Assembly: GCA_021847015.1 (NCBI GenBank)
Contig: JAJZVW010000018.1
Coordinates: 2,860-66,859, forward strand
From: Pseudomonadota bacterium
GTDB taxonomy: Bacteria; Pseudomonadota; Alphaproteobacteria; Rhodospirillales; Magnetospirillaceae
Reading direction: 5' to 3'
Length of the DNA: 64,000 bases
In this document: piece by piece, positions 1-20,237 of the stretch
How the letters are laid out: each line of letters starts with the position of its first letter
Numbering within the stretch: the first letter of the stretch is position 1
Position numbers and translations under genes: made by a program
Notes under the pieces: model-generated
Database searches by the model: none
The model's input: only the letters and a program-made list of their open reading frames with translations
What the model was told of the DNA's origin: nothing

Positions 1-486
1 TTTCAGAGGCCAGCGGGCGCGGCAAAGAATCCGCTCCATCCGGGCGTCCGTCACGGTCACGATATCGCTGAGCCGCCGCATCAAGCCGAATTCGATCATA
101 CCGGCGAAGAGTTCATAGGTCGCTCGTGCGATGCTCCCCGCCGTCTTCGCCTCTCTAGTGCACAGATCGACGCCGAAGCGGCTGCTTTCCCAGATGGCGT
201 CGGATGCCGGCGCAGCCTGTCCGTCCAAGAGCGCCGGGAACGTGTCGCGAAGCATTGTGGGGCCGGTCGTCGGCAACAGACGCACGCACCCTTGAATGCG
301 GTCCTGGTCATCCGTCTGCAGCAGGTACGCAGGCCGGCAGGCATCGAATTCGTCGATCTCCATGTCGCCGCTGACCTCGACGTCCCAGCCCAGACGTTCC
401 TTGAAGACGCGGTAGCGGAGCCGATGCATTTCGGCGAGGTCGTCAATGAACTCGCCATAGCGATCGGGGGTGATGAGTTGGAGCAT
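1..486 (-). CDS. LuxI-family acyl-homoserine-lactone synthase, N-terminal 162 codons (gene runs off the left edge; not in supplied ORF track)
   Basis: Own translation of the minus strand from ATG at 486 (GGAGG 5 nt upstream): MLQLITPDRYGEFIDDLAEMHRLRYRVFKERLGWDVEVSGDMEIDEFDACRPAYLLQTDDQDRIQGCVRLLPTTGPTMLRDTFPALLDG...IWESSRFGVD. The frame is open to position 1. It contains the conserved LuxI blocks (RYRVF..LGW, DEFD, RLLPTTGPTML, WESSRF). Confidence 0.85.
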   Translation of the reverse strand, partial: MLQLITPDRYGEFIDDLAEMHRLRYRVFKERLGWDVEVSGDMEIDEFDACRPAYLLQTDDQDRIQGCVRLLPTTGPTMLRDTFPALLDGQAAPASDAIWESSRFGVDLCTREAKTAGSIARATYELFAGMIEFGLMRRLSDIVTVTDARMERILCRARWPLK

Positions 487-547
487 ATTCGCCTCCTGGC
501 AGGTTTGGACCTGCGCGATAGAAGGCGATAACCAGGAGGTTTCTCAT

Positions 548-565
548 CCTGTGCAGTTGCACAGG
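548..565. promoter_or_regulatory. lux-box-like palindrome CCTGTGCA-GT-TGCACAGG upstream of the luxI-type gene
   Basis: Perfect 8-bp inverted arms with a 2-bp spacer, about 60 nt upstream of the luxI-type ATG, in the 95-nt gap between the luxR-type stop and the luxI-type start. Size and CTG...CAG arm structure match lux/tra-box operators. Confidence 0.6.
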
Positions 566-581
566 GGTCGAAGGCGGGAAC

Positions 582-1307
582 CTATTCGCTTGTCGATTTA
601 GCGGCCGCCAATTTGGCGACGGCCTGGCAGATGGTGCGGACACCGAATTTGGTCTTGGCGTTGTCGAGGTGAAACGCCGCCGTTCGGCGCGAGATGTTCA
701 GAAGCCGTCCGATCTCCCACGCCGACTTTCCCTGCGCCGCCCATTCGAGGCATTCGAGCTCGCGCGGCGACAGGGGCACACCATCAATGACACGCTCCGG
801 GGCAAGCTTCCTCCGCGCATGCGCATGAAAATACAGCGCCATGAGCTGGAGCACATGCCTATTGCGCTCGATACAGCGTTGGAAGGCGGGACGGCGCTCA
901 TCCGCGGCGAAAGTTATCGCTGCGATCGGGCCGCGGGGATCGTGCACCGGAACAGTGAAGCCGCAACGGATTCCGAATTGAGCTGCCTCGGCGAAAAGGT
1001 CGTACTGCGCCTTAGAGAGAGGCGTCGGCGAGAGCCCGATCCCCCATTCGAACGGCTCGGCATTCTTTAGCGATTCGACGATAACCGGATCCACCTTCTC
1101 ATAACGATTCCGCAGATAGTGGTCCGTCCATTTCGTCGGATAGGTCGAGATAAGGTGCGGTATGTCCCCTCGCCGATAGGGAAGTGCAAGATAAGCAAAG
1201 CAATTCAGATCGAGCGCGGCTCCTGCCCGGGCCAGCGTATTTTGCAGGTCCTCCACGTCGGTGCTGTTCGCGATGCCATCGATGAATGATTGGAAAATGC
1301 GATGCAT
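582..1307 (-). CDS. LuxR-family AHL-responsive transcriptional regulator
   Basis: Track ORF 582..1322. N-terminal autoinducer-binding-type region (YPTKWTDHYLRNRYEKVDPV) and C-terminal LuxR HTH (LSPRELECLEWAAQGKSAWEIGRLLNISRRTAAFHLDNAKTKFGV). The start is probably MHRIFQS at 1307 (alternative 1322). Confidence 0.9.
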   Translation of the reverse strand: MHRIFQSFIDGIANSTDVEDLQNTLARAGAALDLNCFAYLALPYRRGDIPHLISTYPTKWTDHYLRNRYEKVDPVIVESLKNAEPFEWGIGLSPTPLSKAQYDLFAEAAQFGIRCGFTVPVHDPRGPIAAITFAADERRPAFQRCIERNRHVLQLMALYFHAHARRKLAPERVIDGVPLSPRELECLEWAAQGKSAWEIGRLLNISRRTAAFHLDNAKTKFGVRTICQAVAKLAAAKSTSE

Positions 1308-1544
1308 GCAGTGTCTCCACATTTCTCAGAGGGTATCAAACGTGACTTGTCCCCCTTTACTGTGGTCGACGGCCTCTTCACCCCATCCAGGCTCGCCTTA
1401 TACTTTTCGTCGATGCTTCCGAACACCATTTCGTCTGAAATACCTTGCATCAACGCTGCCGTTGTATAATGGCAATGGTTCCGATTCCCATCGGGACAGC
1501 TGCTACCTGGGCCATGGTCACACGCAGCGCCGCAGCGCGTCGAT

Positions 1545-2282
1545 TCAACATAAAGCACCCGATGTGATCCGCCCGTCCCTGACGTAGATCACTCGCTCGG
1601 CATGGCGCGCTACTTCGTCACTGTGTGTGACTACGACGATGGTACGCCCTTCGTCACGATGAAGCCCGTTGAGCAGCCCTAACATCTCGGCCTCCGCGGT
1701 GGAGTCGAGGTTCCCCGTCGGCTCGTCCATCAGCAGGAGCGCAGGATCGTTTGCCAAAGCGCGCGCGATTGCGACCCGCTGCTGCTGTCCGCCGGAGAGC
1801 ATGCTCGGCAAGTGGTGAGCCTTGTCGGCAAGTCCGACCCTATCGAGAAGTGCCACTGCGGATGCAGCGGAGGCGCCGCCATTGCGGCCGCCAAACCACA
1901 GCGCAAGCCCCACGTTCTCAACAGCCGTCAGGTGCGGCAGCAGGTTGAAGAACTGAAAGACGAAGCCAAGCTTGCGCGCCCGGACCTTCGCGAGTTCGAC
2001 CGGGCGAAGCGCAGTGATTTCAATGCCGTCCAGAACTACGGTTCCCGCCGAGGGTCTATCGAGGCCGCCCATGAGCTGGAGCAATGTGGACTTCCCGTGT
2101 CCCGACGCACCCATTACTGCTGTCCAGCTCCCGCGCAAAATGCCGCACGAAACCTCGTCGACGGCGATCGTCGCGGCCTCGCCCTCACCGTAGATCTTGG
2201 TTACGCGGTCGAGGCGAATAGCGTCGGCCGTGAAGGTGACGCCGGTAAGCGTCGCGTCTCGTTGCGCCGCCAAACTAGACAT
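1545..2282 (-). CDS. ABC transporter ATP-binding protein (MacB/LolD-like)
   Basis: Walker [10 protein letters not shown], signature [15 protein letters not shown], Walker B LLLMDEPT. The start is taken at MSSLAAQ (2282), giving an 8-nt overlap with the upstream permease. The longer track ORF start (2393) would lie inside the permease gene. Confidence 0.9.
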
Positions 2283-3444
2283 GCCGCATGGCCTCCACTG
2301 GTGACAACTGCGCCGCTCGGGCCGCCGGGTAGAGGCCGGCGACGATGGCAACGATCGTGGAGGACAGAAGGATCGCGAAGATCGTCGATACATCTGGCAG
2401 CACGGCTGTGGGTGCCGCTTGCAATGCTACCATGACACCGTTATTCGCGGCGAAATACGGCCCCAGCAGCCGTGCTGCAACTCCGCCGAGCGCGACCCCT
2501 CCTGCGCCGCCCAGGAGCCCATACAGCATCGACTCGAGGATGAACGCCGCAAAGAGAATGCGGCGCGTGCCACCAATCGCTTGCAGGATGCCGATCTCGC
2601 GCCGACGTTCGTAGACTGCAGTCAGAAGCGTGTTGAGGATGCCGAAAGCGGCCGCAAGCACCCCGACTGCCGCCACCGCCTGCATCGCCGAGCCGACGGC
2701 GCCCACGATCGAGAGGATCGATGAGACGAGCTGCCGGTCTGACACTACGGAGACGTTCGCCGCCTCCTCGATCGCGAGCTTGGCCTGTTCGATCTGGCTA
2801 AGGTCTGCGACGCGCACGGTGAGAAACGAAACCTTACCCTCAACGCCGTAAAGCTGCTGCGCGAGCGCCAGCGGCACGAACGTGGCAATATCATCCTTCG
2901 TACCGGTCTCACGCAGAACACCAAGCACCGGCACTGGCCGACCCCGGACCGTAAAGGCGTCGCCAGGCTTGAGAGCGAATTGCTGCGCGATCGCAGAACC
3001 GAGGACCACGCCCGCTTCGTCTGCAGAAGCGAAATAGCGGCCCTCCGACACCGTCCAGCCACGCAGCGCGCGCATCTCAGCGGGCACGACGCCGATCACT
3101 GGCACCGGCCGGTTCCGGAAGGCTGTCTGTTCATTAAGGTGCGGCACGACGGCCTTCAAACCAGGGACCGCGACGATTTTGGCGACGTCAGCTTCCGGGA
3201 TCGCCTCCGGAAGCTGCTCCCCGGTCAGGACGGAAATCTGCTCGTAAGCGCACCACCCCTTCGGCGTCACCACAAGATCGGCGCCAAGGCCTTGCGCCTG
3301 CCGGTGCACATCACGGGTCAGCCCCTGGCCTATCGTGAGGAGCGCCACAAAAGCCGCCACTCCAATCGCCGTACCGGCAAGGGTGAAGGCGAAGCGCCCG
3401 CGACGCCGGACGAGGTTGCGCCAGACCAGGGTCGGAAGGTTCAC
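2275..3444 (-). CDS. ABC transporter permease, FtsX/MacB-type with periplasmic core domain
   Basis: 389 aa. N-terminal TM helix, large periplasmic segment and C-terminal FtsX-like 3-TM bundle (REIGILQAIGGTRRILFAAFILES). Adjacent to and overlapping its ATPase. Confidence 0.85.
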   Translation of the reverse strand: MNLPTLVWRNLVRRRGRFAFTLAGTAIGVAAFVALLTIGQGLTRDVHRQAQGLGADLVVTPKGWCAYEQISVLTGEQLPEAIPEADVAKIVAVPGLKAVVPHLNEQTAFRNRPVPVIGVVPAEMRALRGWTVSEGRYFASADEAGVVLGSAIAQQFALKPGDAFTVRGRPVPVLGVLRETGTKDDIATFVPLALAQQLYGVEGKVSFLTVRVADLSQIEQAKLAIEEAANVSVVSDRQLVSSILSIVGAVGSAMQAVAAVGVLAAAFGILNTLLTAVYERRREIGILQAIGGTRRILFAAFILESMLYGLLGGAGGVALGGVAARLLGPYFAANNGVMVALQAAPTAVLPDVSTIFAILLSSTIVAIVAGLYPAARAAQLSPVEAMRHV

Positions 3445-3468
3445 GGCTGTGGGCTCCCTCAGTTCTGG

Positions 3469-3957
3469 TCAGCTAATCGTGCCGAGCTTGTCGAGACTCT
3501 CGACCTGGAAGAATGGATACTTGTCGCCCATCATGACGGAGCCACGCAGGTGCAGCTCGTCCCATTGCTTCGGCAGCTCGCCCGTCCACTTCACGGGCAG
3601 ATAGAAGGCGGCGCAACCAGTTGACTTGCAGAGCCGCGCCTCGCGGCTGTCGACCAGCACGAATCCGGTTCCGCCAGCGATTGACATGCCGGCGCGGGCG
3701 ACAACGCCACGCAGGTCGATCGTGCCCTTGTAGTCGAGCATATCCGCGGCGAGTTGTTGAACCTGGAGCGTGCCCTCCGGCACCGCCACCGAATTGTCGC
3801 CCGAATTCGTCGACGCGTGTGTCCACCACGAAAGTGCTCCGGCCCCAATGACCACGGCGGCGACCAAACCCAAGACCGTCCGAAGCGAGAGCGAGGTCTG
3901 CTGCTTTGATTGCCGCGTTGTGATTGCCGCCTTGCGCTGTCGGGTTGCTCTGCTCAT
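3469..3957 (-). CDS. Hypothetical membrane-anchored protein in the ArsR-headed operon
   Basis: Basic N-terminus, one TM helix (LGLVAAVVIGAGALSWW) and a ~110-aa extracytoplasmic domain with a CKSTGC motif. No family recognised. The start at 3957 (GGAG upstream) avoids overlap with the tlpA-like gene. Confidence 0.6.
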   Translation of the reverse strand: MSRATRQRKAAITTRQSKQQTSLSLRTVLGLVAAVVIGAGALSWWTHASTNSGDNSVAVPEGTLQVQQLAADMLDYKGTIDLRGVVARAGMSIAGGTGFVLVDSREARLCKSTGCAAFYLPVKWTGELPKQWDELHLRGSVMMGDKYPFFQVESLDKLGTIS

Positions 3958-4054
3958 GACCATCTCCGTTGGCTGACCTTCCCTAAACTTCAAAAAAATA
4001 CCTCCTGCCGACTCCACCACGCTGCGCGCGCACCTCCGCCACTTGGCCGGCGGA

Positions 4055-4723
4055 TCATTTCGCGCGAGCAGCATCGGCGTCACCGAGCTTGCGGACCAGC
4101 GGCAGGATCTCTGTCTCCATTGCCTCCCGAGTTATCAAGCCAAGGTGCCGATAACGGATGTGGCCATGCTGATCGACGACGAAGGTCGCTGGCAAACCAA
4201 GAACGCCCCAGCCGACCCCAGCTCGGCCATCGCGATCGACGCCAATGCGCTCGTATGGGTCACCCACCTCCGTGACCCATCGCGCGGCCGCGCCCGGTTC
4301 GTCCCGGAAATCGACGCCTAGTACGGGTACCTGATGCGATCGGGCCAGTTCCATAAGGACCGGCGCCTCCACACGACAGGGCACGCACCAGGACGCGAAG
4401 AAGTTGACGATCGTCACGCGCCCAGCCCGCAGGTCGGCGTCCGCCAACGTCGGTTTGCCCGCTGTCAGCGCCGATAAGCCGGATAGAGAAGGCGCTGGTT
4501 CGTCCATCGTCTGCGAGGAGTTCGCAGCCGTCGTGCTGTCTCCAGGTACCGGCGCTTGGCCAGGCATCAGCATTCCGATGATGACGTAGACGGCCACGCC
4601 CAGACCGAACAGCAGCGGGACCACGACGGTAGGACGGCACCATGCCTTCCATCCCGCGGTGGCGTTCCCCGCGCGCTGGGCGGCATTTGACATCGCAACC
4701 GCCGTCTTCGCCCGATCGCTCAT
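4055..4723 (-). CDS. TlpA/ResA/DsbE-like membrane-anchored thioredoxin-fold thiol:disulfide oxidoreductase
   Basis: TM anchor followed by a thioredoxin fold with the redox motif FFASWCVPCRVEAP. ATGA overlap with the upstream ccdA. Confidence 0.9.
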   Translation of the reverse strand: MSDRAKTAVAMSNAAQRAGNATAGWKAWCRPTVVVPLLFGLGVAVYVIIGMLMPGQAPVPGDSTTAANSSQTMDEPAPSLSGLSALTAGKPTLADADLRAGRVTIVNFFASWCVPCRVEAPVLMELARSHQVPVLGVDFRDEPGAAARWVTEVGDPYERIGVDRDGRAGVGWGVLGLPATFVVDQHGHIRYRHLGLITREAMETEILPLVRKLGDADAARAK

Positions 4724-5463
4724 CCGATCCTCCCGAGCGACGGGAATAGCTGGAGCATCCAGATAGAAAAGTCGTTCAGTCGGCCCGCGATCATGGCTAT
4801 GCCCATCAAGATCATCACCGCACCGGCGCCAATGTGCAGAGCGCGCCCGAACGGGCGCAGCCGACGCGAATGGCTGATGAACTGCTCGGTAAACAAGGCG
4901 GCGATCAAAAACGGCACGCCAAGGCCAAGCGAGTATATCGCAAGCAGCGCCATGCCATCCCTACTTGCGGTCGCCGTCGTCAGAGCCAGGATCGAGCCGA
5001 GTACCGGCCCGATGCACGGGGTCCAACCGAATGCGAATGCGAGTCCGAGAAAGTAAGCGGGAACTGGCCCGCCGCCGCTGGTGAGGCCGTGATACCTCAG
5101 CTCCCGTTCGAGTGCTGGCACCCGTACCAGGCCTGTCGTAAACAGCCCAAACAGCAGCACGATCGCGCCACCGGCCAACCCGGCCTCGTAGCGGTATGAC
5201 AGGAATAGCCGGCCCAAGGCCGTGGCACTCGCCCCAAGCAGAGTGAAGACTGTCGAGAATCCAAGCACGAAGCAAACGCCAAGCCCGAGCGTCTGCAGGG
5301 CCGCCCGCCTGTCAGTCGTCTCTTCCACGAAGTCGAGTGATCGCCCCGCGACGAACGACACATAACCAGGCACGAGCGGCAGCACGCATGGCGAAAGGAA
5401 GCTGATCGCCCCAGCGAGAAACGCCGTAACCACACCCGCTCGCGAAAGCTCTAGCACTGGCAC
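4720..5463 (-). CDS. ccdA: CcdA/DsbD-beta-type cytochrome c biogenesis transmembrane electron transporter
   Basis: 247 aa, polytopic. The two conserved Cys-containing helices are present (FLSPCVLPLVPGY and GWTPCIGPVLG). Confidence 0.9.
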   Translation of the reverse strand: MPVLELSRAGVVTAFLAGAISFLSPCVLPLVPGYVSFVAGRSLDFVEETTDRRAALQTLGLGVCFVLGFSTVFTLLGASATALGRLFLSYRYEAGLAGGAIVLLFGLFTTGLVRVPALERELRYHGLTSGGGPVPAYFLGLAFAFGWTPCIGPVLGSILALTTATASRDGMALLAIYSLGLGVPFLIAALFTEQFISHSRRLRPFGRALHIGAGAVMILMGIAMIAGRLNDFSIWMLQLFPSLGRIG

Positions 5464-5472
5464 GGCCTCGCG

Positions 5473-6132
5473 TCATTGACGAGCATTCTGCGCATTGCCC
5501 ACCCATGCTTTGACAAAGCGGTCGATTCGGCCTTGATCGTAGGCGTCGAAGGCGTCGAGCCGTGTCCAGGCCGCGAGCGCGATCTTGTGCGTCATGTTCG
5601 GATACGGAGCGACGAAAACGGCCTGCGCGGCTTCGAGCTGCTCGCCCACATCAGCCCCAGGGGACTGCGGAGTCTGAAGCATCCAAAAACGAAAGTCGTA
5701 CTGCATGGCATAGTCGCGCAGCTTTTTGATCAATTCCGGGCTGGCGTCCTTGTTGTAGAGGATCTCCACGTTGCCATGCTCGAGGATGTGCACCAGGATG
5801 CGCTTCGGCAGCGCGGCATCCGAGATGAAGGTGGTCGGAAAGCGCTCCTCATGCGGTCCCGACGTTGGCGGATCGCTGTTGTAAGGATAAAGGTCATAAT
5901 TGTCGCTGCGGGGAGGGCAGGACTCGCCCATATGGCAGTGACCCTGGCTCGGAAAGAACTGGCCCGGCCCTTCCTGAGCCCCGGCGGCTGGCACTAGGGC
6001 GTCCCACAGGCTCATTTTCGTGCCCGCGACTGCCGCGACGGCCACCACGATCCAGAGCGCCCAAGCCGCGCTCCAGCGCCACCTCAGCCCAACTGGGGGA
6101 AGCGACCGCTCCCGTTGCTCATTGAAATGCAC
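5473..6132 (-). CDS. DUF3105 domain protein (membrane-anchored)
   Basis: TM anchor plus the DUF3105 signature region YNSDPPTSGPH...HILEHGNVEILY. Also carries a GHCHMGESC motif. Confidence 0.8.
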   Translation of the reverse strand: MHFNEQRERSLPPVGLRWRWSAAWALWIVVAVAAVAGTKMSLWDALVPAAGAQEGPGQFFPSQGHCHMGESCPPRSDNYDLYPYNSDPPTSGPHEERFPTTFISDAALPKRILVHILEHGNVEILYNKDASPELIKKLRDYAMQYDFRFWMLQTPQSPGADVGEQLEAAQAVFVAPYPNMTHKIALAAWTRLDAFDAYDQGRIDRFVKAWVGNAQNARQ

Positions 6133-6180
6133 GCGTTTCGTCCTCTCTGACGCCCTCTTGGCGGCGTTCTTGCCTGTTAT

Positions 6181-8289
6181 CTAAGAGTTTGCTGGGCGCA
6201 GACCCGCTTCGGCTGACCTAAGCTCGCGTCCATCGCGGACATTCTCGCGGCGCTCGAGCCGTCCAGACCCAGACCCGTCGCCCGCACCGGACTGTCTGCG
6301 AGGCAAGAGCCGGGCCGAGTTGGCGAGGATGCCGAAGTCCGGGCCCGACTGCGCGGCTGCGGCGATCACCGGTGGCAGCACGCCGATCGCGGCAAGCGCC
6401 AGACCCGTCAGATTGTAAACCGCTGTGAAACCCAGGTTGAGTTTGACCACTCCCATCGTCCGCCGGGCAATGCGGATCACTTCGGGGACAAGCGACCAAT
6501 CTTCGCGCATAAGGGCGATGTGTGCCGCCTCGATCGCAACGCCGCTGCCCGCCGCGCCCATGGCGATCCCCACATCGGCCTGAGCTAGGGCGGGGGCGTC
6601 GTTTACGCCGTCGCCGACCATCACCACGGCTCGGCCTTGAAGCTGGTGCTCTTTAACGACCGCGATCTTGTCTTCTGGCAGAAGGTTCGCGCGATAGGCA
6701 ATGCCGAGTTGGCGCGCGAGCGCGCCAGCCGTGCGCTCGTTATCACCGGTCAGCAATTCGATTTGTTTGATGCCGAGACTGCGTAGCTCTGCCAGCGCCG
6801 CCGGGACTTCCTCACGCAGCGTATCCATGGCGGCGAGCACGCCGATCGCGTGGCTGTCACGCCCCACAAACAGCAACGTCTTTCCCTGCGCTTCGAGATC
6901 AGCAGCCATGCTCGGCAGCGCCGCATCAGCAAGCAGCCGCCGGCTGCCCACCGCGACAGTGCTGCCGTCGATGCGGACCCGCACACCCTGCCCGGGGATC
7001 GCCTCAAATCCTTCCGGCTCGCCGAGCCGCTGCCCATGCTCGGCCGCCGCCGCGCGCACGGCCTCGGCCAGTGGGTGCTCCGAATAACGCTCCGCCGTCG
7101 CGGCAAGCCGCAGGAGTTGGCCACCGTCATACCGGCTGTCCAATGGAACGACATCGGTGATCCGCGGCCGGCCGAGCGTAAGCGTCCCGGTCTTGTCGAG
7201 CAGGACGACGTCGGCCTTTGCCAATGCTTCGACATACTTGCTGCCCTTGATGAGCAGTCCACGGCGCGCCGCCGAGCCGATCGAGGCGATCATCGCGACT
7301 GGCGTGGCAATCGCAAAGGAACACGAACAAGCGACCATCAAGACTGCCGCGGTGGCGAGCGCGTTCCCGCTCACGACAAAGGTTGCCGTGGCGATCGCTG
7401 CCACGACCGGCAGGTACCAGGTCGCGAAGCGGTCGGCGATCCGCTGAACGGGCGCGCGATGCTTCTCAGCGTTCTCCACAAGCCGAATGACATGGCCAAA
7501 CGTCGTGTCAGACCCGACCTCGGTCGTGCGCACGCGCAAATGCCCGAGGTGAGTGAAACTTGCGGCAAAGACCCGTGCGCCCGGCCCCGCTTCGACCGGC
7601 ATTGACTCGCCGGTAATCGCGGCTTGGTTCACCGTTGCCTGGCCGCCAATGACCTCGCCATCAACCGGGATTTTCTCGCCCGGTCGGACAATGACAGTCT
7701 CGCCGACACGCACTTCGGCCACCGGCACCTCGACTTCGTGCCCGTCGCGCTCGACACGAGCCCTCTCCGGCGCCATCGCCGTCAAATCTTGCACAGCGCG
7801 GCGGGCCCGCACGGCCGTGAACTGCTCGATGTAGTCGGCAAGGCGCATAAAGAAGACGACGATGACGGCAGCGGGCCACTGGCCAACCGCAATTGCGGCG
7901 ATGAGCCCCACTGTCATCAAAGTGTGCGAAGTGACCTTGAGTCGAAGTGCCGCTCGCACGACGGTCCAAAAGATCGGATAGCCGCCGGCAAAAACACCAG
8001 CCAACCAGAATGGCCAGGGCACCAGATTGCTCAACCTCTCCAGGAGGCCGAGCCATTCCGCCAGCACCACGAGTAAGACGACGACACCGAGAGTCGCTCC
8101 GAAGGCCGCCAGCAATCGCCCTGAGAAGCCCGCAAGCGTTGCCGCGCTGGACGTTTTCGGCACCGCGCTCGCGCCGCTGCCCGGCTCGCTGCCGGGCTGG
8201 CAAGAGCATTCATCGGCGCACGACGAGACAGACTGGACACGGTCAAGGGAAGAAGTCGAGGAGGGCATGCTTTGTTGCCTAGTCCACAA
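6181..8289 (-). CDS. Heavy-metal translocating P1B-type ATPase with atypical C-S-C transmembrane motif
   Basis: 702 aa. TGES (ITGESMPVE), DKTGTLT, TGDN and GDGVNDAPAL motifs are present. The membrane metal-site helix reads VACSCSFAIATP. There is no GMxCxxC HMA domain; the N-terminus has a SSCADECSC cluster instead. Confidence 0.9.
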   Translation of the reverse strand: MWTRQQSMPSSTSSLDRVQSVSSCADECSCQPGSEPGSGASAVPKTSSAATLAGFSGRLLAAFGATLGVVVLLVVLAEWLGLLERLSNLVPWPFWLAGVFAGGYPIFWTVVRAALRLKVTSHTLMTVGLIAAIAVGQWPAAVIVVFFMRLADYIEQFTAVRARRAVQDLTAMAPERARVERDGHEVEVPVAEVRVGETVIVRPGEKIPVDGEVIGGQATVNQAAITGESMPVEAGPGARVFAASFTHLGHLRVRTTEVGSDTTFGHVIRLVENAEKHRAPVQRIADRFATWYLPVVAAIATATFVVSGNALATAAVLMVACSCSFAIATPVAMIASIGSAARRGLLIKGSKYVEALAKADVVLLDKTGTLTLGRPRITDVVPLDSRYDGGQLLRLAATAERYSEHPLAEAVRAAAAEHGQRLGEPEGFEAIPGQGVRVRIDGSTVAVGSRRLLADAALPSMAADLEAQGKTLLFVGRDSHAIGVLAAMDTLREEVPAALAELRSLGIKQIELLTGDNERTAGALARQLGIAYRANLLPEDKIAVVKEHQLQGRAVVMVGDGVNDAPALAQADVGIAMGAAGSGVAIEAAHIALMREDWSLVPEVIRIARRTMGVVKLNLGFTAVYNLTGLALAAIGVLPPVIAAAAQSGPDFGILANSARLLPRRQSGAGDGSGSGRLERRENVRDGRELRSAEAGLRPANS

Positions 8290-8313
8290 GAGAGAAACCT
8301 GGTACCGAGCGCC

Positions 8314-8805
8314 TCATTCGACGCTTCCGGTGCGACTACGGCGCTGGGTAGGAACTCCCGTCTCGCCATCCAATCGTGCAAAGCGGTCGCGGGTGTCCTC
8401 GACAAGACACAGGCACCGATCGATCAGGTCAGCAACGCAGGGGTCGACGACCCGATAGTGGATGCTCGTGCCGTCACGCACACTGCTGACAATGCCCTTG
8501 TCAGCCAGGCGCTGGAGCTGATTCGAAATCGCCTGCGGCTTCATGCCGATGGTCTCGGCCAGCTCGGTGACGGCCATCCCCGGCCGCCGCAGCAGCGCAT
8601 GCAGCATGCGAAGGCGCGTCTCGCTGGCCAGGACCTTAAACGTCCGCTCGATCGCGCCGGCGTCCGCCCCGGCCAATAGGGGCCGTTCGGTTAGCGCCGG
8701 GCGTGGCCGGCATCCGCCGCTCGAGCTTGTTCCCCGAACGGTGCAGGACCGGCCAGCCGCCGCCTCAGCGGTGGCATGAGACTTAGGTGAGGAACGTCCG
8801 GGCAT
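8314..8805 (-). CDS. ArsR/SmtB-family metalloregulator
   Basis: Winged HTH: LASETRLRMLHALLRRPGMAVTELAETIGMKPQAISNQLQRLADKGIVSS. C-terminal Cys pairs (DPCVADLIDRCLCLV). First gene of the minus-strand operon. The exact start is uncertain. Confidence 0.85.
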   Translation of the reverse strand: MPGRSSPKSHATAEAAAGRSCTVRGTSSSGGCRPRPALTERPLLAGADAGAIERTFKVLASETRLRMLHALLRRPGMAVTELAETIGMKPQAISNQLQRLADKGIVSSVRDGTSIHYRVVDPCVADLIDRCLCLVEDTRDRFARLDGETGVPTQRRSRTGSVE

Positions 8806-8894
8806 CTTTCACTCCTACACAAAACAATGTAATATGGAGAGCGTGGAGGTGCAAGCCGCTTCCCGCCATCGGATACGTCGGTCCGTAAAGGTGC

Positions 8895-9920
8895 ATGCCA
8901 GTGAAGCTCCTTGACAAAATTGCACGAGTGATCCGTGCGGGGCCCGGGTCCCGCAACCATCTCTTTATCATGGCCCTGGCGAGCCTCTGGCTACTGACGG
9001 GATCTCTTGCGCTAGCGGCCGACAAGCCAGTCGTGCGGGTCGGAGCCTTGAAGTCCGGCACCCTGAGCTGGGAACTCGAGGTGATCGTACGCCATCATCT
9101 GGACCAAACGAACGGCATCCAGATCAGCGAGATCGACACCCAGCGCGCCGAGGCGACCGAAACAGACCTGCGGGAAGGACGCGTCGATGTCATCCTCTCG
9201 AACTGGTTCTGGGTCTCGCAGCAACGCGCTGCCGGCGCCGATTGGACGTTCGTGCCGTTCTCGACGGCGGTCGGCGTCCTCGTGACCCCGCCGGGTACGA
9301 CGATCCGTTCGCTCCCCGATCTAAAGGGCCGCCGGCTCGGCGTCGTCGGAACGAGTCACGACGAGAACTGGCTCATCCTTCGCCTCGCGGCACAACAGCG
9401 GTATGGGTTCGACCTCAGCGAAGGTTCCACGGCGTCCTTCGGGCCACCGGCCGCCATCACCGAGCGGCTCAAGGCGGGCGAGATCGACGCGGCCTTAACG
9501 CTGTGGCAGATCGCGGCTCGGCTTGAAGGCGACGGAATGCGGCGCGCGCTCAGCGTGAATGACGTTGTCCACGAACTCGGCGTCAGCAGCGACGTTCCCT
9601 TGCTCGGCTACGTGTTTTCCGAGAAGTGGGCCCGGGCCAACCCTTCCCGCCTCGAGGGCTTCTTGCACGCCGCAAAGGACGCAAACGCAATATTGGCCAC
9701 TTCCGACACCGAATGGGACCGGATCGCACCCCTGATAGGGATGCATAGTCCTGCCGAACTCGCGAGCGTGCGTGACGCCTTCCGCGCCGGCATTCCCCGG
9801 CACTGGGGTCCGGCCGGGCGGGCCGACGCCGAGCGGCTGTATGCCCTGCTGGGCAAATCCGGCGCGGAACCTGGCACCCGCCTCGCTCCGGGCACTTTCT
9901 TCGACGTTGCACCCTACTAG
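8895..9920 (+). CDS. Periplasmic substrate-binding protein, NMT1/SsuA/TauA-like
   Basis: 341 aa with a signal-peptide-like segment (LASLWLLTGSLALAADKP) and a type-2 periplasmic binding fold pattern. No cognate permease or ATPase lies next to it. The start is uncertain (8895 or the downstream Met). Confidence 0.7.
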   Translation: MPVKLLDKIARVIRAGPGSRNHLFIMALASLWLLTGSLALAADKPVVRVGALKSGTLSWELEVIVRHHLDQTNGIQISEIDTQRAEATETDLREGRVDVILSNWFWVSQQRAAGADWTFVPFSTAVGVLVTPPGTTIRSLPDLKGRRLGVVGTSHDENWLILRLAAQQRYGFDLSEGSTASFGPPAAITERLKAGEIDAALTLWQIAARLEGDGMRRALSVNDVVHELGVSSDVPLLGYVFSEKWARANPSRLEGFLHAAKDANAILATSDTEWDRIAPLIGMHSPAELASVRDAFRAGIPRHWGPAGRADAERLYALLGKSGAEPGTRLAPGTFFDVAPY

Positions 9921-9931
9921 GGCAGTACAAG

Positions 9932-10528
9932 ATGGCCCACTTGCTGCAGCATGTCGTTCCCAGGAAGACGAAACGTTTCGCGCCTTGGGCGCTGCTGCTC
10001 GCTGTGCCAATCGGAACGATCGCAGTGCTGCTTCTTGCATGGGAGCAGCCACTCGGGAGCAGCCGACTTGGGGCCGCTGGGCAAGAATTAGCACCCCGTT
10101 TTCAGGGAACCGCTGACCACGTCCATATCCTCACCGTCGGCCGCCTTGATACGATCAAAGGTGACGAGATCGTCGTCACACTTAACATTGATCACGGGTA
10201 CCACATCAACGCCAATCCCGCTTCATTCGACTATTTGATTCCGACGCGTCTGAATTTCAGTGGTCTCGAACCGATCAGCATCGCATATCCACGTCCGACG
10301 CATTTTCAACCAAAGTTTGCCGACATGCCGCTCGATGTCTTCGAGGGAACAGTCGCGATCACCGCGCTCCTGCCGAAAGGCACTGCCAGGGGTTCCGCGC
10401 CAAGTCTTTCGCTCCGCGCTACACTTACAGCGCAGGCGTGCGACGCCGTAATATGCCTTCCTCCGGCCGACCTCACGATCGGCGCTCCGCCGGCTTCTCG
10501 CGACGAGACTACGCTTCAGCAGCGCTGA
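9932..10528 (+). CDS. DsbD N-terminal (alpha) domain-like protein
   Basis: TM/signal segment followed by an Ig-like domain pattern (HGYHINANPASFDYLIPT) and the C-proximal Cys pair LTAQACDAVICLPP, characteristic of DsbD-alpha-type domains. Confidence 0.7.
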   Translation: MAHLLQHVVPRKTKRFAPWALLLAVPIGTIAVLLLAWEQPLGSSRLGAAGQELAPRFQGTADHVHILTVGRLDTIKGDEIVVTLNIDHGYHINANPASFDYLIPTRLNFSGLEPISIAYPRPTHFQPKFADMPLDVFEGTVAITALLPKGTARGSAPSLSLRATLTAQACDAVICLPPADLTIGAPPASRDETTLQQR

Positions 10529-10962: not shown

Positions 10963-11010
10963 CCGGCGTTGCGCTCACACATACCGCTCACGCAATGGAG
11001 GGTCACAGCA

Positions 11011-11748
11011 ATGAACGAAGCCGACGTTAACACAACCTGTTCACCGACTGACGGTATCCGAACGCTTTACACCGAGCTCGCGATTCACCCCGAAATGGAC
11101 TTCGGCTGGGGCAAGGGCAAGGAGAACGCCCGCCGGCTCGGATACGATAAGCGATGGCTGGAAAGCCTTCCCGACATAGCGTGGGAGTCGGCAGCCGCTG
11201 TCGGAAATCCTTTCGCGCTCGGGCCACTGAGATCCAGTGAGGCCGTCGTCGATCTCGGCTGCGGCGCCGGCGCAGACCTGTGCATTGCAGCCCTGCTCGT
11301 CGGCAATGCTGGCCGAGCGGTGGGGATCGACGTCACGCCGGCGATGATCGCGAAGGCGCGCAACGTCGCCCATGCGGTTGGCCTGGACAATGCTGAGCTG
11401 CACGTCGCCGATATGGAAACGCTGCCGTTGGCTGACGCCTCGGTCGAGGTCGTTATCTCCAACGGCGCTATCAATCTCTCCGCCCACAAGCCCTGCGTGT
11501 TCAAGGAAATCTTCCGGGTGCTGAAGCCCGGAGGCCGACTGCAGTTCGCCGACATGGTGCGCGACGGTGCAGACGAAGCGTCGAGCTGCGGCTCGTGGGC
11601 AGACTGCGTTTCGGGAACGGTCGAGCCTCAACGCTATCTCGAAATGCTCAGCGCCGCAGGTTTCATGGGGTCGGAGCTGGTGGCGCTCACCGGCTACAGG
11701 ACAGCCGCGAACACGATCGGCGCCCTCTTCCGGGCCCGGAAGCCGTAA
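11011..11748 (+). CDS. SAM-dependent methyltransferase, ArsM (arsenite methyltransferase)-like
   Basis: SAM motif I VVDLGCGAGAD, then GRAVGIDVTPAMI, VISNGAINL and LKPGGRLQF, with a C-terminal Cys-containing segment (SSCGSWADC). GGAGGG lies upstream of the ATG at 11011. Confidence 0.8.
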   Translation: MNEADVNTTCSPTDGIRTLYTELAIHPEMDFGWGKGKENARRLGYDKRWLESLPDIAWESAAAVGNPFALGPLRSSEAVVDLGCGAGADLCIAALLVGNAGRAVGIDVTPAMIAKARNVAHAVGLDNAELHVADMETLPLADASVEVVISNGAINLSAHKPCVFKEIFRVLKPGGRLQFADMVRDGADEASSCGSWADCVSGTVEPQRYLEMLSAAGFMGSELVALTGYRTAANTIGALFRARKP

Positions 11749-11817: not shown

Positions 11818-12453
11818 ATGGCGAGAGTATCCAGCGTGCACACAGGTGGAAAGACGATTGAAGGCTTCTTCCCGGCGACTGCGATGCCAGATAGCGACTG
11901 GTGGGGCGCTCTGTGGCCCGAGCCGTCGCAGGTCGTCGCCAAGCTGGGGATCGAGCCTGGGTTGGACGTCGTAGACTTGGGTTGCGGCGACGGGCTATTC
12001 ACCGTGGCGCTCGCGCACGTGGCGCGGCGGGTGCTCGCCATCGACATCGATCCGCGGATGTTGGACCTGGCGCGCGCCAGGGTCAGTGCGGCGGGCGTGA
12101 CCAATTGCGCGTTCGTCGAAGGCGACGCTTACGAGATTGCCACGCTCGTACCGTGGCGGGCGGATTTGGTTCTCATCGCGAACACCTTTCACGGCGTGCC
12201 CGACAAGGAACGCCTCGCCCGCGGGGTGGCGGCAATCCTGAAGCCGAACGGCTGGTTCGTCGTGGTCAACTGGCACCGGCGCCCGCGAGAGGAGACCCCG
12301 GTTCTCGGCCAGCCACGCGGACCGAAGACCGACATGCGGATGGAACCGGAGGACGTGGCGGCAGCGGTCGAGCAATCGGGGCTCAGGCTCGCGCGCGTCG
12401 TCGAGCTACCGCCCTATCACTACGGCGCGATCCTCGCGAATTCTGGCACATAA
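11818..12453 (+). CDS. Class I SAM-dependent methyltransferase
   Basis: Motif I VVDLGCGDGLF and a post-I acidic residue (AIDID); 211 aa. Confidence 0.8.
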   Translation: MARVSSVHTGGKTIEGFFPATAMPDSDWWGALWPEPSQVVAKLGIEPGLDVVDLGCGDGLFTVALAHVARRVLAIDIDPRMLDLARARVSAAGVTNCAFVEGDAYEIATLVPWRADLVLIANTFHGVPDKERLARGVAAILKPNGWFVVVNWHRRPREETPVLGQPRGPKTDMRMEPEDVAAAVEQSGLRLARVVELPPYHYGAILANSGT

Positions 12454-12478: not shown

Positions 12479-13030
12479 ATGGACAAGCAGAACGAGCAGG
12501 CTTCCGGAACGAAGGGCGGCTGTGGCTGCCATCCTCAAAGTGCGAAAGAAGAGCCACAGGCTTCACAAGCCAAGAGCGCCGACGCCGAAAGCGGCGGCCC
12601 GATGGCCATGGGCATGGGCATGGCAAAGAAGATGATGGCCCAAATGGGCCAGGGCGGCGGTCCCATGGAGATGATGCAGAAGATGATGGCTCAGATGAGC
12701 CACGGCGAGGGCAAGCCGCCCATGGAAAAAATGATGGGCATGTGCATGGGCATGTGCGCCGAGATGCTCACTGGCCTTCGGCAGACCAATGCACTTGCCG
12801 TCTTCGCCACCCCGGAGCTGCAGCACGCCTTCGGCGAATGGCTGAAAGACCTTGAGAGCAAAGCGGAAGCCGCAGTCGCTCAGGGAGAAAAAGACGCGGC
12901 CGCACTCGCGTCGGCGCTCAACATCACAGAGGATAGCGCCCGCTATGTCCTCGCGCGGCTCGCGGCGAGTGGCAAGGTGATGCTCGTCGCGCGGTCACCG
13001 ACGCAGGGGGCAAGCGATGCCGCCGGGTGA
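12479..13030 (+). CDS. Methionine-rich putative metal-binding protein
   Basis: 183 aa. GGCGCH near the N-terminus. A 56-residue stretch (PMAMGMGMAKKMMAQMGQGGGPMEMMQKMMAQMSHGEGKPPMEKMMGMCMGMCAEM) contains 20 Met. The C-terminal half has normal composition. Confidence 0.7.
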   Translation: MDKQNEQASGTKGGCGCHPQSAKEEPQASQAKSADAESGGPMAMGMGMAKKMMAQMGQGGGPMEMMQKMMAQMSHGEGKPPMEKMMGMCMGMCAEMLTGLRQTNALAVFATPELQHAFGEWLKDLESKAEAAVAQGEKDAAALASALNITEDSARYVLARLAASGKVMLVARSPTQGASDAAG

Positions 13031-13744: not shown

Positions 13745-14323
13745 CGCGCCTAGGGCAGCGCACTGCTGCCAGCGCGTATTCGCGAGGCCCAAAGTCAGCG
13801 GAAAGCCAGCCTGGCTTCTGATCATTTTTCCAAAAACGAGCGGCAGTTCGGAAGCACACTCGAATTGAACTTGCCCACTGCTCGGGGCTCTTTAAGCATG
13901 CGCCCTGCTAGGCCTTGGGACTCACCACGCGTATTCCGGGCCTGAGCCCCGGCGCGCCTCGCAAGCGCCATCGCATTAGGTCCGATAGGCTTACAACATA
14001 CTGTAATTATTATCATTCTCCGCACGCTGGTTGCGTGATGGCCTGGCGGGATGCCCTGGCGGTCTTGTACTCTTACACAGTTCTATGTATTAGAAAAAGT
14101 TAGCCACCTTGCTTCCGGTAAACCGCTCCATGACCCCCTCCCACCCCTCATGCACGCCCATGCGCGCCGCTCGTCGAGCGCGCTCCAGCGGCTGGATCCG
14201 GTGCGGACACTCTCGAGCTGGCGTTCAGAGCCCGGCAAGCGGCACGGGCCACATGCTTGCTTCACGCACTCCGGTGGCCGCCAAGCATGTCAGTTGCCGA
14301 GCCGGGGGCAGGCCGTGGAAATC

Positions 14324-15892
14324 ATGAAACGTCAGGCCAATTGTAAACACTTCCAGCACTTCGGCGAGGAGGACATCGGCGGCGGTGGGGGATCAGAAGC
14401 CGTGTCAGCGGTTTCTTCCTGTACGCGCGGCAGCGGCCACGGGCAGGCCCCTAGTCTCAAACTCATCCTCAGCCTGACTGCGATCGCGGCCATCACTCTG
14501 TTGACAGGCTGCGCCACCTATCATCCCAAACCGCTCGATCCAGTTCTCACTGAAGCTTCGTTTCGCGATCGCTCGTTGTCGGATCCAGGTCTTCGCGACT
14601 ACCTCGCAAGCCAAGCCGCAATCGTTGCAACAACCAAAGAGCCCATCCTCAATCTTTCAACTCTGACGCTGATAGCCTTTTACTATAATCCCGATCTAGA
14701 GGCGGCGCGGGCAAGCTTGGATTTGGCATCAGCGGGCGTTGTGACCGCCGCCGCAATGCCGAACCCGTCGGTCAATTTTCCCCCGACTTATGAAACCCCT
14801 CTGCCACCCGGTGTGACGCCGTGGGCTTTCTTTGGTCCCTCCTTCGACATTCCTATCGAGACCGCCGGCAAACGCACGTACAGGATCGCAGAGGTTCGAC
14901 ATCTTTCGCGAGCAGCCGCGTTTGGATTCATGTCGACAGCTTGGCAGGTGCGAAGCCACGTTCGTGCTGCCGCCGTTGCCTATATTTTGGCGGAGCGGAT
15001 GCTGGAGCTCCGGCGCGCCGAGGAAAGTGCGCGCTCCGAACTTGTCACCATCTTCGAGAAGAGCTTCGCAGCTGGCGAGGTTTCGCAGCCAGAACTGATT
15101 ACAGCGCGCAGCAACCTCCTCGATGCTCATCTAGCAGTCCAGGCCGCCGAAAGCACAGTCGTCGATGCGCGAAGCGCGCTCGCTACCGCGCTCGGCGTGC
15201 CCTTATCCGCCGTTGAAGGTGCCCACATTGTCTGGCCCGAACTCGCACACCCGCCAACGGACGCATCCATCGCACCGGCAGCGGTTCAAGCCGCCGGGTT
15301 GCTGAACCGACTCGACGTGCGCGGAGCGCTTGCCGACTACTCAGCGTCAGAGAGCGCACTCCAGTTAGAGATTGCAAAACAATATCCCGACATTCATCTC
15401 GGCCCTGGCTACCAGTTCGAACAGAACACAAACAAGTGGACGCTCGGCATCTCACTAACGCTGCCAGTCTTCAATCAGAACCAGGGACCAATTGCGGAAG
15501 CCGAGGCGAAGCGCGAGCAGGCCGAGATACGATTCGCTGGGCTTCAGGCACGAGTCATCGGTGACACGGCCCGAGCGCGCGCGCTCTATAAGACGGCTAA
15601 GGCAAGCCTAGCGGACGCTGACACCGCGCTCTCATTGGCGCGCCAGCAGGAGACGGCAGCAGGACGCCTCCTGCAAACAGGTGAAGGCGACCGGCTTTCG
15701 CTTGTTGCCGCCCAGATCCAACGCATTTTGGCAGAGCGTGGTCGCCTCGACGCTTTGCGACGCGCACAGGATGCGCTGGGAGCCTTGGAGGACGCAGTGC
15801 AACGGCCACTCGGCGGCGAGCCGAGCCTGCCACCGGTCCCCTTGCCACAATCGTCGCTCCAATATCTTGAAGTCGAGGAAAGCAGGTCGTGA
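14324..15892 (+). CDS. Outer-membrane efflux lipoprotein, TolC/CusC/CzcC family
   Basis: Lipobox LLTGCATY followed by two OEP-type helical repeats. GTGA overlap with the downstream adaptor gene. The true start is uncertain: the track ORF begins at 14051, the first in-frame ATG near the signal peptide is 14324, and a later GTG is possible. Confidence 0.8.
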   Translation: MKRQANCKHFQHFGEEDIGGGGGSEAVSAVSSCTRGSGHGQAPSLKLILSLTAIAAITLLTGCATYHPKPLDPVLTEASFRDRSLSDPGLRDYLASQAAIVATTKEPILNLSTLTLIAFYYNPDLEAARASLDLASAGVVTAAAMPNPSVNFPPTYETPLPPGVTPWAFFGPSFDIPIETAGKRTYRIAEVRHLSRAAAFGFMSTAWQVRSHVRAAAVAYILAERMLELRRAEESARSELVTIFEKSFAAGEVSQPELITARSNLLDAHLAVQAAESTVVDARSALATALGVPLSAVEGAHIVWPELAHPPTDASIAPAAVQAAGLLNRLDVRGALADYSASESALQLEIAKQYPDIHLGPGYQFEQNTNKWTLGISLTLPVFNQNQGPIAEAEAKREQAEIRFAGLQARVIGDTARARALYKTAKASLADADTALSLARQQETAAGRLLQTGEGDRLSLVAAQIQRILAERGRLDALRRAQDALGALEDAVQRPLGGEPSLPPVPLPQSSLQYLEVEESRS

Positions 15893-17079: not shown

Positions 17080-17093
17080 GGAGATCCTGACCA

Positions 17094-20000: not shown

Positions 20001-20237
20001 CTCGTCACGGCATTGGGCCTGCTGCCAATCGCCATTTCCAGCGGCACCGCCGGGCATGAAATCGAAGGGCCGATGGCACTTGTAATCCTTGGCGGTCTTT
20101 TCACCTCGACCGCACTCAACCTTCTCGTGCTCCCGATTCTCGCGCTCCGTTACGGGAATTTCGTACCAGCTACGGCCGATATAGATACGCTCGCTGGTCC
20201 GGCGACGGCAGAGCCCGGACCGATTACCACCTCGTAG
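17094..20237 (+). CDS. Heavy-metal efflux RND transporter, CusA/CzcA family
   Basis: 1047 aa. The N-terminus [18 protein letters not shown]...[27 protein letters not shown] is typical of HME-RND pumps, with a 12-TM architecture. Confidence 0.95.

Follow-up and report, generated by a model that had tools for sequence, protein, structure and literature searches.

At positions 1545-8805 of a 64,000-nt window (the whole stretch of DNA analysed, taken from contig JAJZVW010000018.1 of the Magnetospirillaceae assembly GCA_021847015.1), eight intact minus-strand genes encode, in transcriptional order, an ArsR-family regulator, a heavy-metal P-type ATPase, a DUF3105 protein, CcdA, a TlpA-like thioredoxin-fold reductase, a small protein predicted to adopt an oligonucleotide/oligosaccharide-binding (OB) fold, a MacB-type permease and an ABC ATPase (Table 1). 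An initial annotation, made from the letters alone, had proposed these genes, their spacing and their domains, and all of these were recovered by the open reading frame (ORF) listing from which genes were taken here and by Pfam and NCBIfam scans, whose scores were read against the model cutoffs. With the start codons of that annotation, the first three junctions, counted from arsR, are spaced by 24, 48 and 9 nt, ccdA and the reductase gene overlap by 4 nt, 97 and 24 nt separate the next two pairs, and the permease and ABC ATPase genes overlap by 8 nt. Homologues make ATG 8268 (695 aa) a likelier start of the P-type ATPase than TTG 8289, which sets its distance from arsR at ~45 nt; the DUF3105 start is possibly later than annotated as well, its homologues being 190-204 aa long. 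The 97-nt gap, which separates the redox genes (ccdA and the reductase gene) from the OB gene, was considered as the site of an internal terminator, an idea that was dropped after no terminator and no significant RNA structure (z = 0.88) were found there. The eight genes are presumably co-transcribed.

Table 1. Features of the operon and of its surroundings in the window, with the scores or methods behind each assignment (ORF, open reading frame; NBD, nucleotide-binding domain; AF2, AlphaFold2; SAM, S-adenosylmethionine; OMF, outer-membrane factor; MFP, membrane-fusion protein; RND, resistance-nodulation-division; HME, heavy-metal efflux)
Feature	Position	Strand	Basis
ABC ATPase partner, LolD/MacB-NBD-like	1545..2282 (ORF open to 2393)	-	PF00005 113 bits; TIGR02211 214 bits, below equivalog cutoff
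MacB-type (type VII ABC) permease	2275..3444	-	PF12704 (MacB_PCD) 107.9 bits; PF02687 (FtsX) 60.9 bits
Single-pass periplasmic protein with predicted OB fold, unnamed family	3469..3957 (ORF open to 4083)	-	AF2 and Foldseek
DsbE/CcmG/TlpA-type membrane-anchored periplasmic thioredoxin-fold reductase, WCVPC	4055..4723	-	TIGR00385 133.9 bits vs 123.15
CcdA, DsbD beta-type transmembrane thiol-electron conduit	4720..5463	-	PF02683 45.8 bits vs 27.1
DUF3105 protein, N-terminal membrane helix and periplasmic domain	5473..6132	-	PF11303 73.8 bits vs 25
P1B-7-type heavy-metal P-type ATPase	6181..8289 (likely start ATG 8268)	-	TIGR01525 561 bits vs cutoff 346; PF00122, PF00702
ArsR/SmtB metalloregulator	8314..8805	-	NF033788 78.3 bits vs cutoff 55; PF01022 36.7 vs 22
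Divergent intergenic region, presumed promoter and operator	8806..8894	.	Sequence read
NMT1/SsuA-like periplasmic binding protein	8895..9920	+	PF09084, PF12974
Stand-alone DsbD-alpha-like periplasmic protein	9932..10528	+	PF11412 27.0 bits vs cutoff 25 (marginal)
ArsM-like methyltransferase	10969-11748	+	NF008823 178 bits, below cutoff
Second SAM methyltransferase, weakly CpaM-like	11818-12453	+	
Met-rich protein	12479-13030	+	
OMF-MFP-RND operon, CusA/CzcA family (HME-RND)	14051-20237		RND 694 bits, just below 701 cutoff

The P-type ATPase belongs to the P1B-7 subfamily, since the fourth transmembrane segment (TM4), which reads VACSCSFAIATP (ACSCS), carries Cys-Ser-Cys (CSC) rather than Cys-Pro-Cys (CPC), and likewise neither SPC nor PCP; the initial annotation had recognized the heavy-metal P1B core and missed this class. 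The CSC motif recurs (as ACSCS) in 111 of the 120 best database homologues, and across 18 diverse members C314-S315-C316, the Y618-N619 pair (YN) of TM5, and Q640, P643 and D644 are invariant, the last being the TM6 Asp. No match to the heavy-metal-associated (HMA) domain model PF00403 was found in the protein; in the proteobacterial branch of P1B-7 an N-terminal C-x(2-5)-C-x-C cluster stands in for this domain, and the window ATPase has the cytosolic N-terminal cluster SCADECSC. With the rest of the subfamily it shares the P-type core motifs read in its translation (DKTGT, TGES, GDGVNDAP and the HP of SEHPL), the TM4 signature and the lack of a characterized substrate. The class stems from the 2014 classification of Smith, Smith & Rosenzweig (as cited in PMC13460109 and PMC7558416); the CSC-defined subtype is called "still poorly understood" (PMC13460109), and its substrate is entered as "Unknown" in Table 4 of a second paper (PMC7558416). 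Whereas the parts of this literature that treat P1B-7 give a sequence class only, the window pump is surrounded by accessory genes whose association with it is conserved. A PDB sequence search returned no solved P1B-7 structure, with CopA, CoaT and ZntA about equally distant; the best solved relatives (CopA, 374 bits, vs ZntA, 307 bits) do not resolve metal specificity. On the NCBIfam side, the Cd-family model scores 469 bits vs 418 bits for the Cu model.

At the other end of the operon, the last three products, the OB protein, its neighbouring MacB permease and the ABC ATPase, make up a trio that is invariant in the loci compared. The OB protein had been described in the initial annotation as an unknown single-pass protein with a CKSTGC motif, a description that stands insofar as the protein has no Pfam or NCBIfam match (nor does any tested family member match Pfam); its fold, its conserved signature and its partnership with the permease and the ABC ATPase had gone unnoticed. 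The AF2 model is confident over residues 60-162 (predicted local distance difference test, pLDDT, >90), and its Foldseek matches are to OB folds, among them subunits of replication protein A, N-domains of aminoacyl-tRNA synthetases and the periplasmic YgiW. A profile search of 1.8 billion representatives places the protein in a family of 396 representative clusters (E<=0.001), whose members are 120-170 residues long, each with an N-terminal anchor or lipobox. The family signature is D103-x2-E106-x3-C110-x4-C115, in which both Cys are present in 155/155 representatives, E106 in 153/155 and D103 in 146/155. D103, E106 and C110 would share one face, because they are spaced 3 and 4 residues apart in a predicted helix (H104-110), and the Cys2-Asp-Glu constellation of the model may constitute a metal site. 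The permease combines a MacB periplasmic core domain with an FtsX C-terminal transmembrane domain, and its sole Cys, C65 (in GWCAYEQ), lies in the periplasmic domain and is invariant in 15/15 distinct homologues. The Walker A, signature and Walker B motifs of the ABC ATPase are intact. With the OB protein as seed, a metagenome scan found the OB gene followed by the MacB permease gene in 11/11 loci, with permeases 66-74% identical to that of the window (66-92% over all related loci), and the ABC ATPase gene after the permease in all 10 metagenome loci long enough to show it.

The trio shares several traits with type VII ABC systems (MacAB-TolC, LolCDE, FtsEX-EnvC and HrtBA), namely a four-TM permease, a MacB periplasmic core, a separate nucleotide-binding domain (NBD) and a gene for a periplasmic partner immediately upstream of the permease. 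It differs from them in the absence of a MacA-type adaptor or TolC gene, in the nature of the partner, a small OB-fold Cys2-Asp-Glu protein, in the invariant periplasmic Cys of the permease and in its control by a metalloregulator. Membership in MacAB-TolC was rejected: the MacB-fold permease and NBD are present, but neither the operon nor the sister cassettes contain an HlyD/MFP domain. LolCDE was rejected on scores of 99 bits vs 362 for TIGR02212 and 214 vs 308 for TIGR02211. Likewise, a CcmE heme chaperone was considered for the OB protein, which has the OB fold and the single-pass anchor, and was rejected in view of the missing Pfam and NCBIfam matches and of conserved residues that are D, E, C and C instead of a C-terminal heme-binding His motif. 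In a broader sense, the operon resembles cytochrome c maturation System I (CcmAB-CcmE-CcmG-DsbD), in which an ABC ATPase likewise occurs with a periplasmic OB-fold carrier on a single-pass anchor, a DsbE/CcmG reductase and electron supply by DsbD/CcdA. The analogy is one of logic only: here the permease is MacB-type rather than CcmB/C, the OB protein has Cys2-Asp-Glu rather than the heme-binding His of CcmE, and no CcmC, CcmF or CcmH is encoded in the operon. Similar to CusF/CusCBA and PacL-CtpC, a small extracytoplasmic or membrane-tethered protein, which would bind metal, is encoded beside a metal pump, and CusF, a small beta-barrel, recalls the OB protein; no sequence relationship was detected to these systems, whose ligand sets are different, and the ABC motor is attached only here.

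Between the pump and the trio lie the genes of a putative thiol-redox relay. CcdA has both PC motifs (SPCVLP and TPCIGP), with homologues 76-96% identical in three of the related loci to which the operon was compared through gene-neighbourhood look-ups and the metagenome scan (these loci carry the label L followed by a number; here L081, L102/103 and L106). The reductase gene overlaps ccdA by 4 nt, and its product, which has an N-terminal anchor, also matches Redoxin and AhpC-TSA. Since the host keeps a separate CcdA (contig C62, 44% identity to the operon copy) and a CcmG-like paralogue (contig C53) elsewhere, the operon copies are dedicated extras. The third element is encoded across the divergent promoter region, where the initial annotation had placed a DsbD-alpha-like protein next to a binding protein; both were found, the former with a marginal DsbD_N match and a Cys pair in ACDAVICLPP (CDAVIC-LPP). 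A 54% identical homologue is divergent from the ArsR gene in L106, and DsbD_N genes close the canonical cassette in L084/85, L105, L107-109 and L093. Both the beta features (DsbD_TM with two PC-motif Cys) and the gamma-like features (a CxxC thioredoxin fold) of DsbD are found in the operon.

CcdA, the TlpA-like reductase and the DsbD-alpha-like protein would cover the three DsbD modules as separate genes, as had been suggested from the window alone. This reading is now supported by comparison, because the electron supplier is interchangeable between loci: full-length DsbD occupies this slot in L115 (as the last operon gene) and L093, CcdA plus DsbD_N in the window, L102/103 and L106, and only a Redoxin-DsbD_N pair in R. 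pickettii, L107-109 and L105. With DsbD, ScsABCD and CcdA-TlpA systems the operon shares the beta and thioredoxin-fold modules, the divergently encoded DsbD-alpha-like protein being the candidate for the alpha module, and sister loci contain full-length DsbD or an ScsC-like gene; here, however, the modules are separate genes inside a metal-pump operon, and there is no ScsA or ScsB. The resemblance to Scs copper tolerance that had been pointed out earlier is thus reasonable, with an ScsC-like gene upstream in the sister locus L115, but ScsA, ScsB, ScsC and DsbA were not found in the operon. Membership in the Scs systems was rejected, no ScsC_N, DsbA or ScsA-type gene being present there. The client of the relay is probably a Cys of the OB protein or of the MacB domain rather than DsbC/DsbG, cytochrome c or Sco.

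The DUF3105 protein shares with its whole family the invariant motifs NSDPPTSGPH and VHxLEHG, and in the alignment those members that are linked to P1B-7 have a further motif, GHCHxGxSCP, with two Cys and two His, which distant members lack. Its AF2 model is confident (mean pLDDT 87). The gene directly follows that of P1B-7 in L081, L102/103 and L105, with stop and start codons overlapping in L102 and L105. The protein most likely serves the pump as acceptor or chaperone in the periplasm; no description of a function was found in the full-text literature, as was also the case for the OB family. Together with the TlpA-like reductase, the OB protein, the MacB domain and DsbD_N, it makes up five proteins with conserved Cys that are predicted, from N-terminal anchors and charge, to face the periplasm.

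The regulator gene is preceded by a strong Shine-Dalgarno sequence (AGGAG, 8816-8812) upstream of its ATG at 8805, and its product combines a winged-helix HTH_5 core above the family threshold with a long N-terminal extension containing two Cys and a C-terminal C-x8-CLC motif (DPCVADLIDRCLC), with no alpha-3 CxC. Homologues 74-83% identical head the operon in L081 and L106, and an alignment shows CLCL(V/R)ED to be common to the window protein and a P1B-7-linked regulator of R. pseudosolanacearum. The regulators of the sister cassettes L082, L084, L087, L093 and L117 are CadC-like, with N-terminal CEITC and alpha-3 ELCVCD, and the window regulator is of a different ArsR subtype. Nonetheless, the general layout recalls CadC-CadA and ZntA-type (P1B-2) systems: an ArsR-family repressor precedes a P1B pump, two Cys in TM4 are combined with an Asp in TM6, and sister cassettes have CadC-like Cys4 regulators. 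The differences are TM4 CSC instead of CPC, TM5 YN rather than Lys, a regulator without the alpha-3 CVC and the extra periplasmic modules.

Comparison across loci provides the main evidence that these genes belong together. Homologous gene sets were found in at least nine independent loci, an arrangement that goes beyond chance and agrees with the initial annotation in that the genes behave as a recurrent unit. The recurrent set (here called the cassette) consists of ArsR, P1B-7, the OB protein, the MacB permease, the ABC ATPase, a thioredoxin-like reductase and DsbD-alpha, and it recurs with shuffled order in R. pickettii, L091, L102/103, L105, L106, L107/108, L109, L115 and L081. The order ArsR, P1B-7, OB, MacB, ABC, Redoxin, DsbD_N is found in R. 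pickettii, L107/108 (Tn3-family contexts) and L109; in R. pickettii, stop and start codons overlap at the ATPase-OB junction. L105 has ArsR, P1B-7, DUF3105, OB, MacB, ABC, Redoxin, Sco and DsbD_N; L102/103 has ArsR, P1B-7, DUF3105, Redoxin, OB, MacB, ABC, a DsbA-like gene and CcdA; L115 has ArsR, P1B-7, Redoxin, OB, MacB, ABC and full-length DsbD, preceded by ScsC-like and DsbA-like genes; L106 is a rearranged set with a pair of small multidrug resistance (SMR) genes; and L081 keeps the exact order of the window at 83-96% identity. A genome scan with the generic pattern M[VI]GDGVND hit a true P1B-7 in only ~10/80 loci, and the neighbourhoods were taken from the other look-ups. Such an SMR pair is inserted in the cassette at two independent loci, L106:3830-4549 on a metagenome contig and L117:7099-7872 on a Vibrio campbellii plasmid.

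The same comparison shows that the eight-gene operon is a composite of recurrent, separable modules and not one obligate machine, with DUF3105 and CcdA as optional inserts; the view of the eight genes as one system therefore holds for the recurrent unit and not for its indivisibility. P1B-7 also occurs in other company. In A. ferrivorans, ArsR, P1B-7, an outer-membrane efflux protein (OEP), an MFP and an RND pump are encoded inside a Tn7-like element, a layout that fits a two-step export route; Leptospirillum combines ArsR, P1B-7, an MtrA-like protein and MerT; and Diaphorobacter and Shinella plasmids carry P1B-7 with CopZ-like, DsbB, thioredoxin, Sco, PCuAC and TlpA genes. V. campbellii pIFL1_1 is the only PLSDB plasmid with the cassette, and its ATPase is non-CSC (not P1B-7). 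In several cassette variants an MtrA-like/PterinBD-DUF4346 protein (NF002128, 580 bits; L093:8608-9972, L087:12096-13259, L014:1832-2959) sits between the CadC-like regulator and the OB gene, and its C-terminal CSGDSCTC resembles an N-terminal Cys cluster of P1B-7, SCGDECSC. This protein may hint at a corrinoid or methyl-transfer link to metal handling.

The operon appears to have been acquired horizontally, because the ATPase was not found in 40 relatives (genomes of the same family or order), the OB protein was not found in 400 sampled genomes of the phylum, and Tn3, Tn7 or integrative and conjugative element (ICE) genes adjoin homologous loci. In R. pickettii, genes for MerR, a P1B ATPase and a PAP2/signal-peptidase fusion come after the cassette (L084:15956-19954), and this unit presumably corresponds to the pbrR-pbrA-pbrBC type of lead resistance. 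In L109:5000-16900, the canonical cassette adjoins a complete merR-TPCA-D-E operon within a Tn3-family element, so that it is co-mobilized with classical mercury resistance.

Taken together, these observations are best accounted for by a horizontally acquired, ArsR-controlled operon that detoxifies a thiophilic metal and was assembled from three recurrent modules, a reading to which we assign a probability of roughly 0.68. In the first module, the regulator would control the P1B-7 ATPase, which would move metal from the cytoplasm to the periplasm. In the second, the trio would capture the metal in the periplasm through the Cys2-Asp-Glu site of the OB protein and the Cys of the MacB domain, and the ABC motor would pass it on or release it by ATP-driven mechanotransmission, with the RND pump further along the window as a plausible downstream outlet. 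In the third, electrons would flow from cytoplasmic thioredoxin through CcdA to the TlpA/DsbE-like reductase and/or the stand-alone DsbD-alpha protein, and the relay would hold the periplasmic metal-ligand thiols of the OB protein and the MacB domain reduced against oxidation by DsbA. The relay step proposed here is likened to an established logic, in which TlpA reduces Sco and CoxB to prepare them and CcmG does so for apocytochrome c, and it gains support because electron suppliers are interchangeable across loci. DUF3105, whose translation is coupled to that of the pump in sister loci and which has His/Cys motifs of its own, would accept or chaperone the metal. Gene content, folds, invariant residues, recurrence and mobility can be read from the data; that the genes are co-transcribed, that the OB protein binds metal, which way electrons flow and which metal is handled are what we infer from them. 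For the last, a divalent ion of the Cd/Pb/Zn/Hg type has about an even chance, favored by the CadC-like sister regulators, the invariant TM6 Asp, the Asp and Glu of the OB protein and the higher score of the Cd model over the Cu model; Cu(I) or Ag(I) takes a smaller but still sizeable share, and other metals the rest. A bolder extension, which is doubtful at present, is that an inorganic thiophilic metal ion is the cargo of the OB protein and the invariant-Cys MacB permease, which would then be the first type VII ABC machine of this kind, acting as a periplasmic second stage of P1B-7 and dependent on a private DsbD-like relay.

Several observations weigh against this three-module scheme. The operon has neither a membrane-fusion nor an outer-membrane component with which the MacB protein could pair, and the DUF3105 model has no significant fold match in the PDB (best E-value 0.15, weakly thioredoxin-like). 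CSC ATPases occur without the cassette in Chloroflexota, Armatimonadota and Rhodothermus, with at most an ArsR gene nearby, and Streptomyces and M. abscessus plasmids pair the CSC pump with a MerR-family regulator. Conversely, the cassette lacks P1B-7 in several metagenome loci, where the MtrA-like protein takes its slot (read directly in L093); because the modules are separable, a functional hand-off from pump to cassette is not required by the data. On the side of control, the window regulator is not of the CadC type (alpha-3N C-x3-C plus CVC), the alpha-3 Cys being absent in the alignment, and within 8806-8894 a consensus promoter scan found nothing and no inverted or operator repeat was found, a weak hand-read candidate (TTGCAC at 8854-8849, a 17-nt spacer, TACATT at 8831-8826) being what the region offers. 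Finally, the signals of metal identity conflict between copper (Sco, PCuAC and CopZ-like neighbours, TM5 YN, CopA as nearest solved relative), mercury (MerT or MerC neighbours) and a divalent metal.

The alternative that fares best, although its odds are well short of even, is a copper system in which P1B-7 is a Cu(I) pump and periplasmic Cys proteins under copper stress are protected or metallated by the relay, DUF3105 and the OB protein, as in Scs and TlpA-Sco-PCuAC. YN in TM5 is a feature of Cu(I) pumps such as CopA, and the pair is invariant in the window subfamily, whose best solved relatives are again CopA. In agreement with this idea, Sco, PCuAC, TlpA, CopZ-like HMA and multicopper-oxidase genes adjoin P1B-7 in the Shinella and Diaphorobacter plasmids, L102/103 and L105, an ScsC-like gene lies upstream in L115, and the window itself encodes a Met-rich protein and a CusA/CzcA-family RND pump. 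Yet the canonical cassettes are headed by CadC-like regulators with a Cd/Pb/Zn-type Cys4 site, TM6 has the invariant Asp without the Met/Ser-Ser that Cu(I) pumps have there, an OB site with Asp and Glu would be unusual for Cu(I), and the Cd-family model outscores the Cu model on the ATPase.

Less probable still is a passive mosaic, i.e., resistance and redox modules stacked by transposition that have a strand and perhaps a promoter in common and do not cooperate mechanistically. Every module does occur without the others somewhere, the gene order varies between loci, transposases and resolvases flank many copies, and the 97-nt gap falls exactly at the seam between relay and trio. However, the same set re-forms in at least nine independent loci regardless of order, a thioredoxin-fold reductase and some DsbD-type component nearly always accompany the trio, the pump gene overlaps at its stop codon with the start of the OB gene (R. 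pickettii) or of the DUF3105 gene (L102, L105), every periplasmic component has conserved Cys, and no significant hairpin or terminator was found in the gap.

The least probable reading is that P1B-7 and the thiol proteins process Hg(II) or methylated or thiol-bound metal(loid) species, tying the function to the neighbouring MerT/MerC, DUF302 and ArsM-like methyltransferases and, elsewhere, to the MtrA-like corrinoid protein: it draws on the MerC and DUF302 genes that diverge from arsR in L081, a locus with 87% identity, on the MtrA-like protein and MerT after P1B-7 in Leptospirillum, on the MtrA-like protein with a similar terminal Cys cluster in the P1B-7 slot of cassette variants, on the ArsM-like and second methyltransferases that recur beside the operon and on three-Cys clusters that would suit trigonal S3 coordination, but the operon has no MerA, MerP or MerB, the window operon has no corrinoid protein, the L109 cassette stands beside a complete mer operon and would hence be redundant for Hg, and resistance genes cluster on islands anyway.

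Returning to the detoxification operon assembled from three modules, its parts are of known kinds (P1B-7, type VII ABC, DsbD/CcdA/TlpA, ArsR), and what is added here is the link of the OB-MacB cassette to P1B-7, DUF3105 and interchangeable DsbD components. In keeping with the earlier view that the combination is not a described system, no description of the arrangement and no named operon were found in the full-text literature, and the RefSeq annotation of every cassette gene on pIFL1_1 is generic. P1B-7 has been recognized since 2014 without known substrate or partners; the observation that transposons carry proteobacterial P1B-7 pumps together with a fixed set of periplasmic Cys proteins makes the function of the pump testable. 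It also offers a candidate function for DUF3105 and for an unnamed OB-fold family of ~400 representative clusters, suggests a metal-handling role, not described so far, for MacB-type ABC machines, and ties extracytoplasmic thiol-redox control to metal efflux beyond the copper/Scs paradigm, while drawing attention to a mobile resistance cassette whose genes receive only generic labels from current annotation pipelines. The type VII metal-cargo reading, if true, would amount to a new three-tier metal export, with a P-type pump, a thiol-dependent periplasmic ABC stage and reductase support, and would reveal the substrate class of P1B-7.

Beyond the operon, the divergent arm is a conserved companion rather than random cargo, because homologues of the ArsM-like and second methyltransferases and of the Met-rich protein (66-94% identical) recur beside the operon in L102/103, L106 and L091. 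The binding protein that opens this arm had been called an orphan in the initial annotation; it gave no tblastn match in the related loci compared (L115/L116 lay outside the comparison), was rejected as a member on this ground and probably stands outside the system. The RND operon farther downstream is a possible outer-membrane exit for periplasmic metal. On the opposite side, a LuxR/LuxI pair (window 1-1322) lies directly downstream of the ABC ATPase gene, a position that is kept in L081:17007-18496, where the pair is followed by LysR and DUF2274 (ICE-type) genes.

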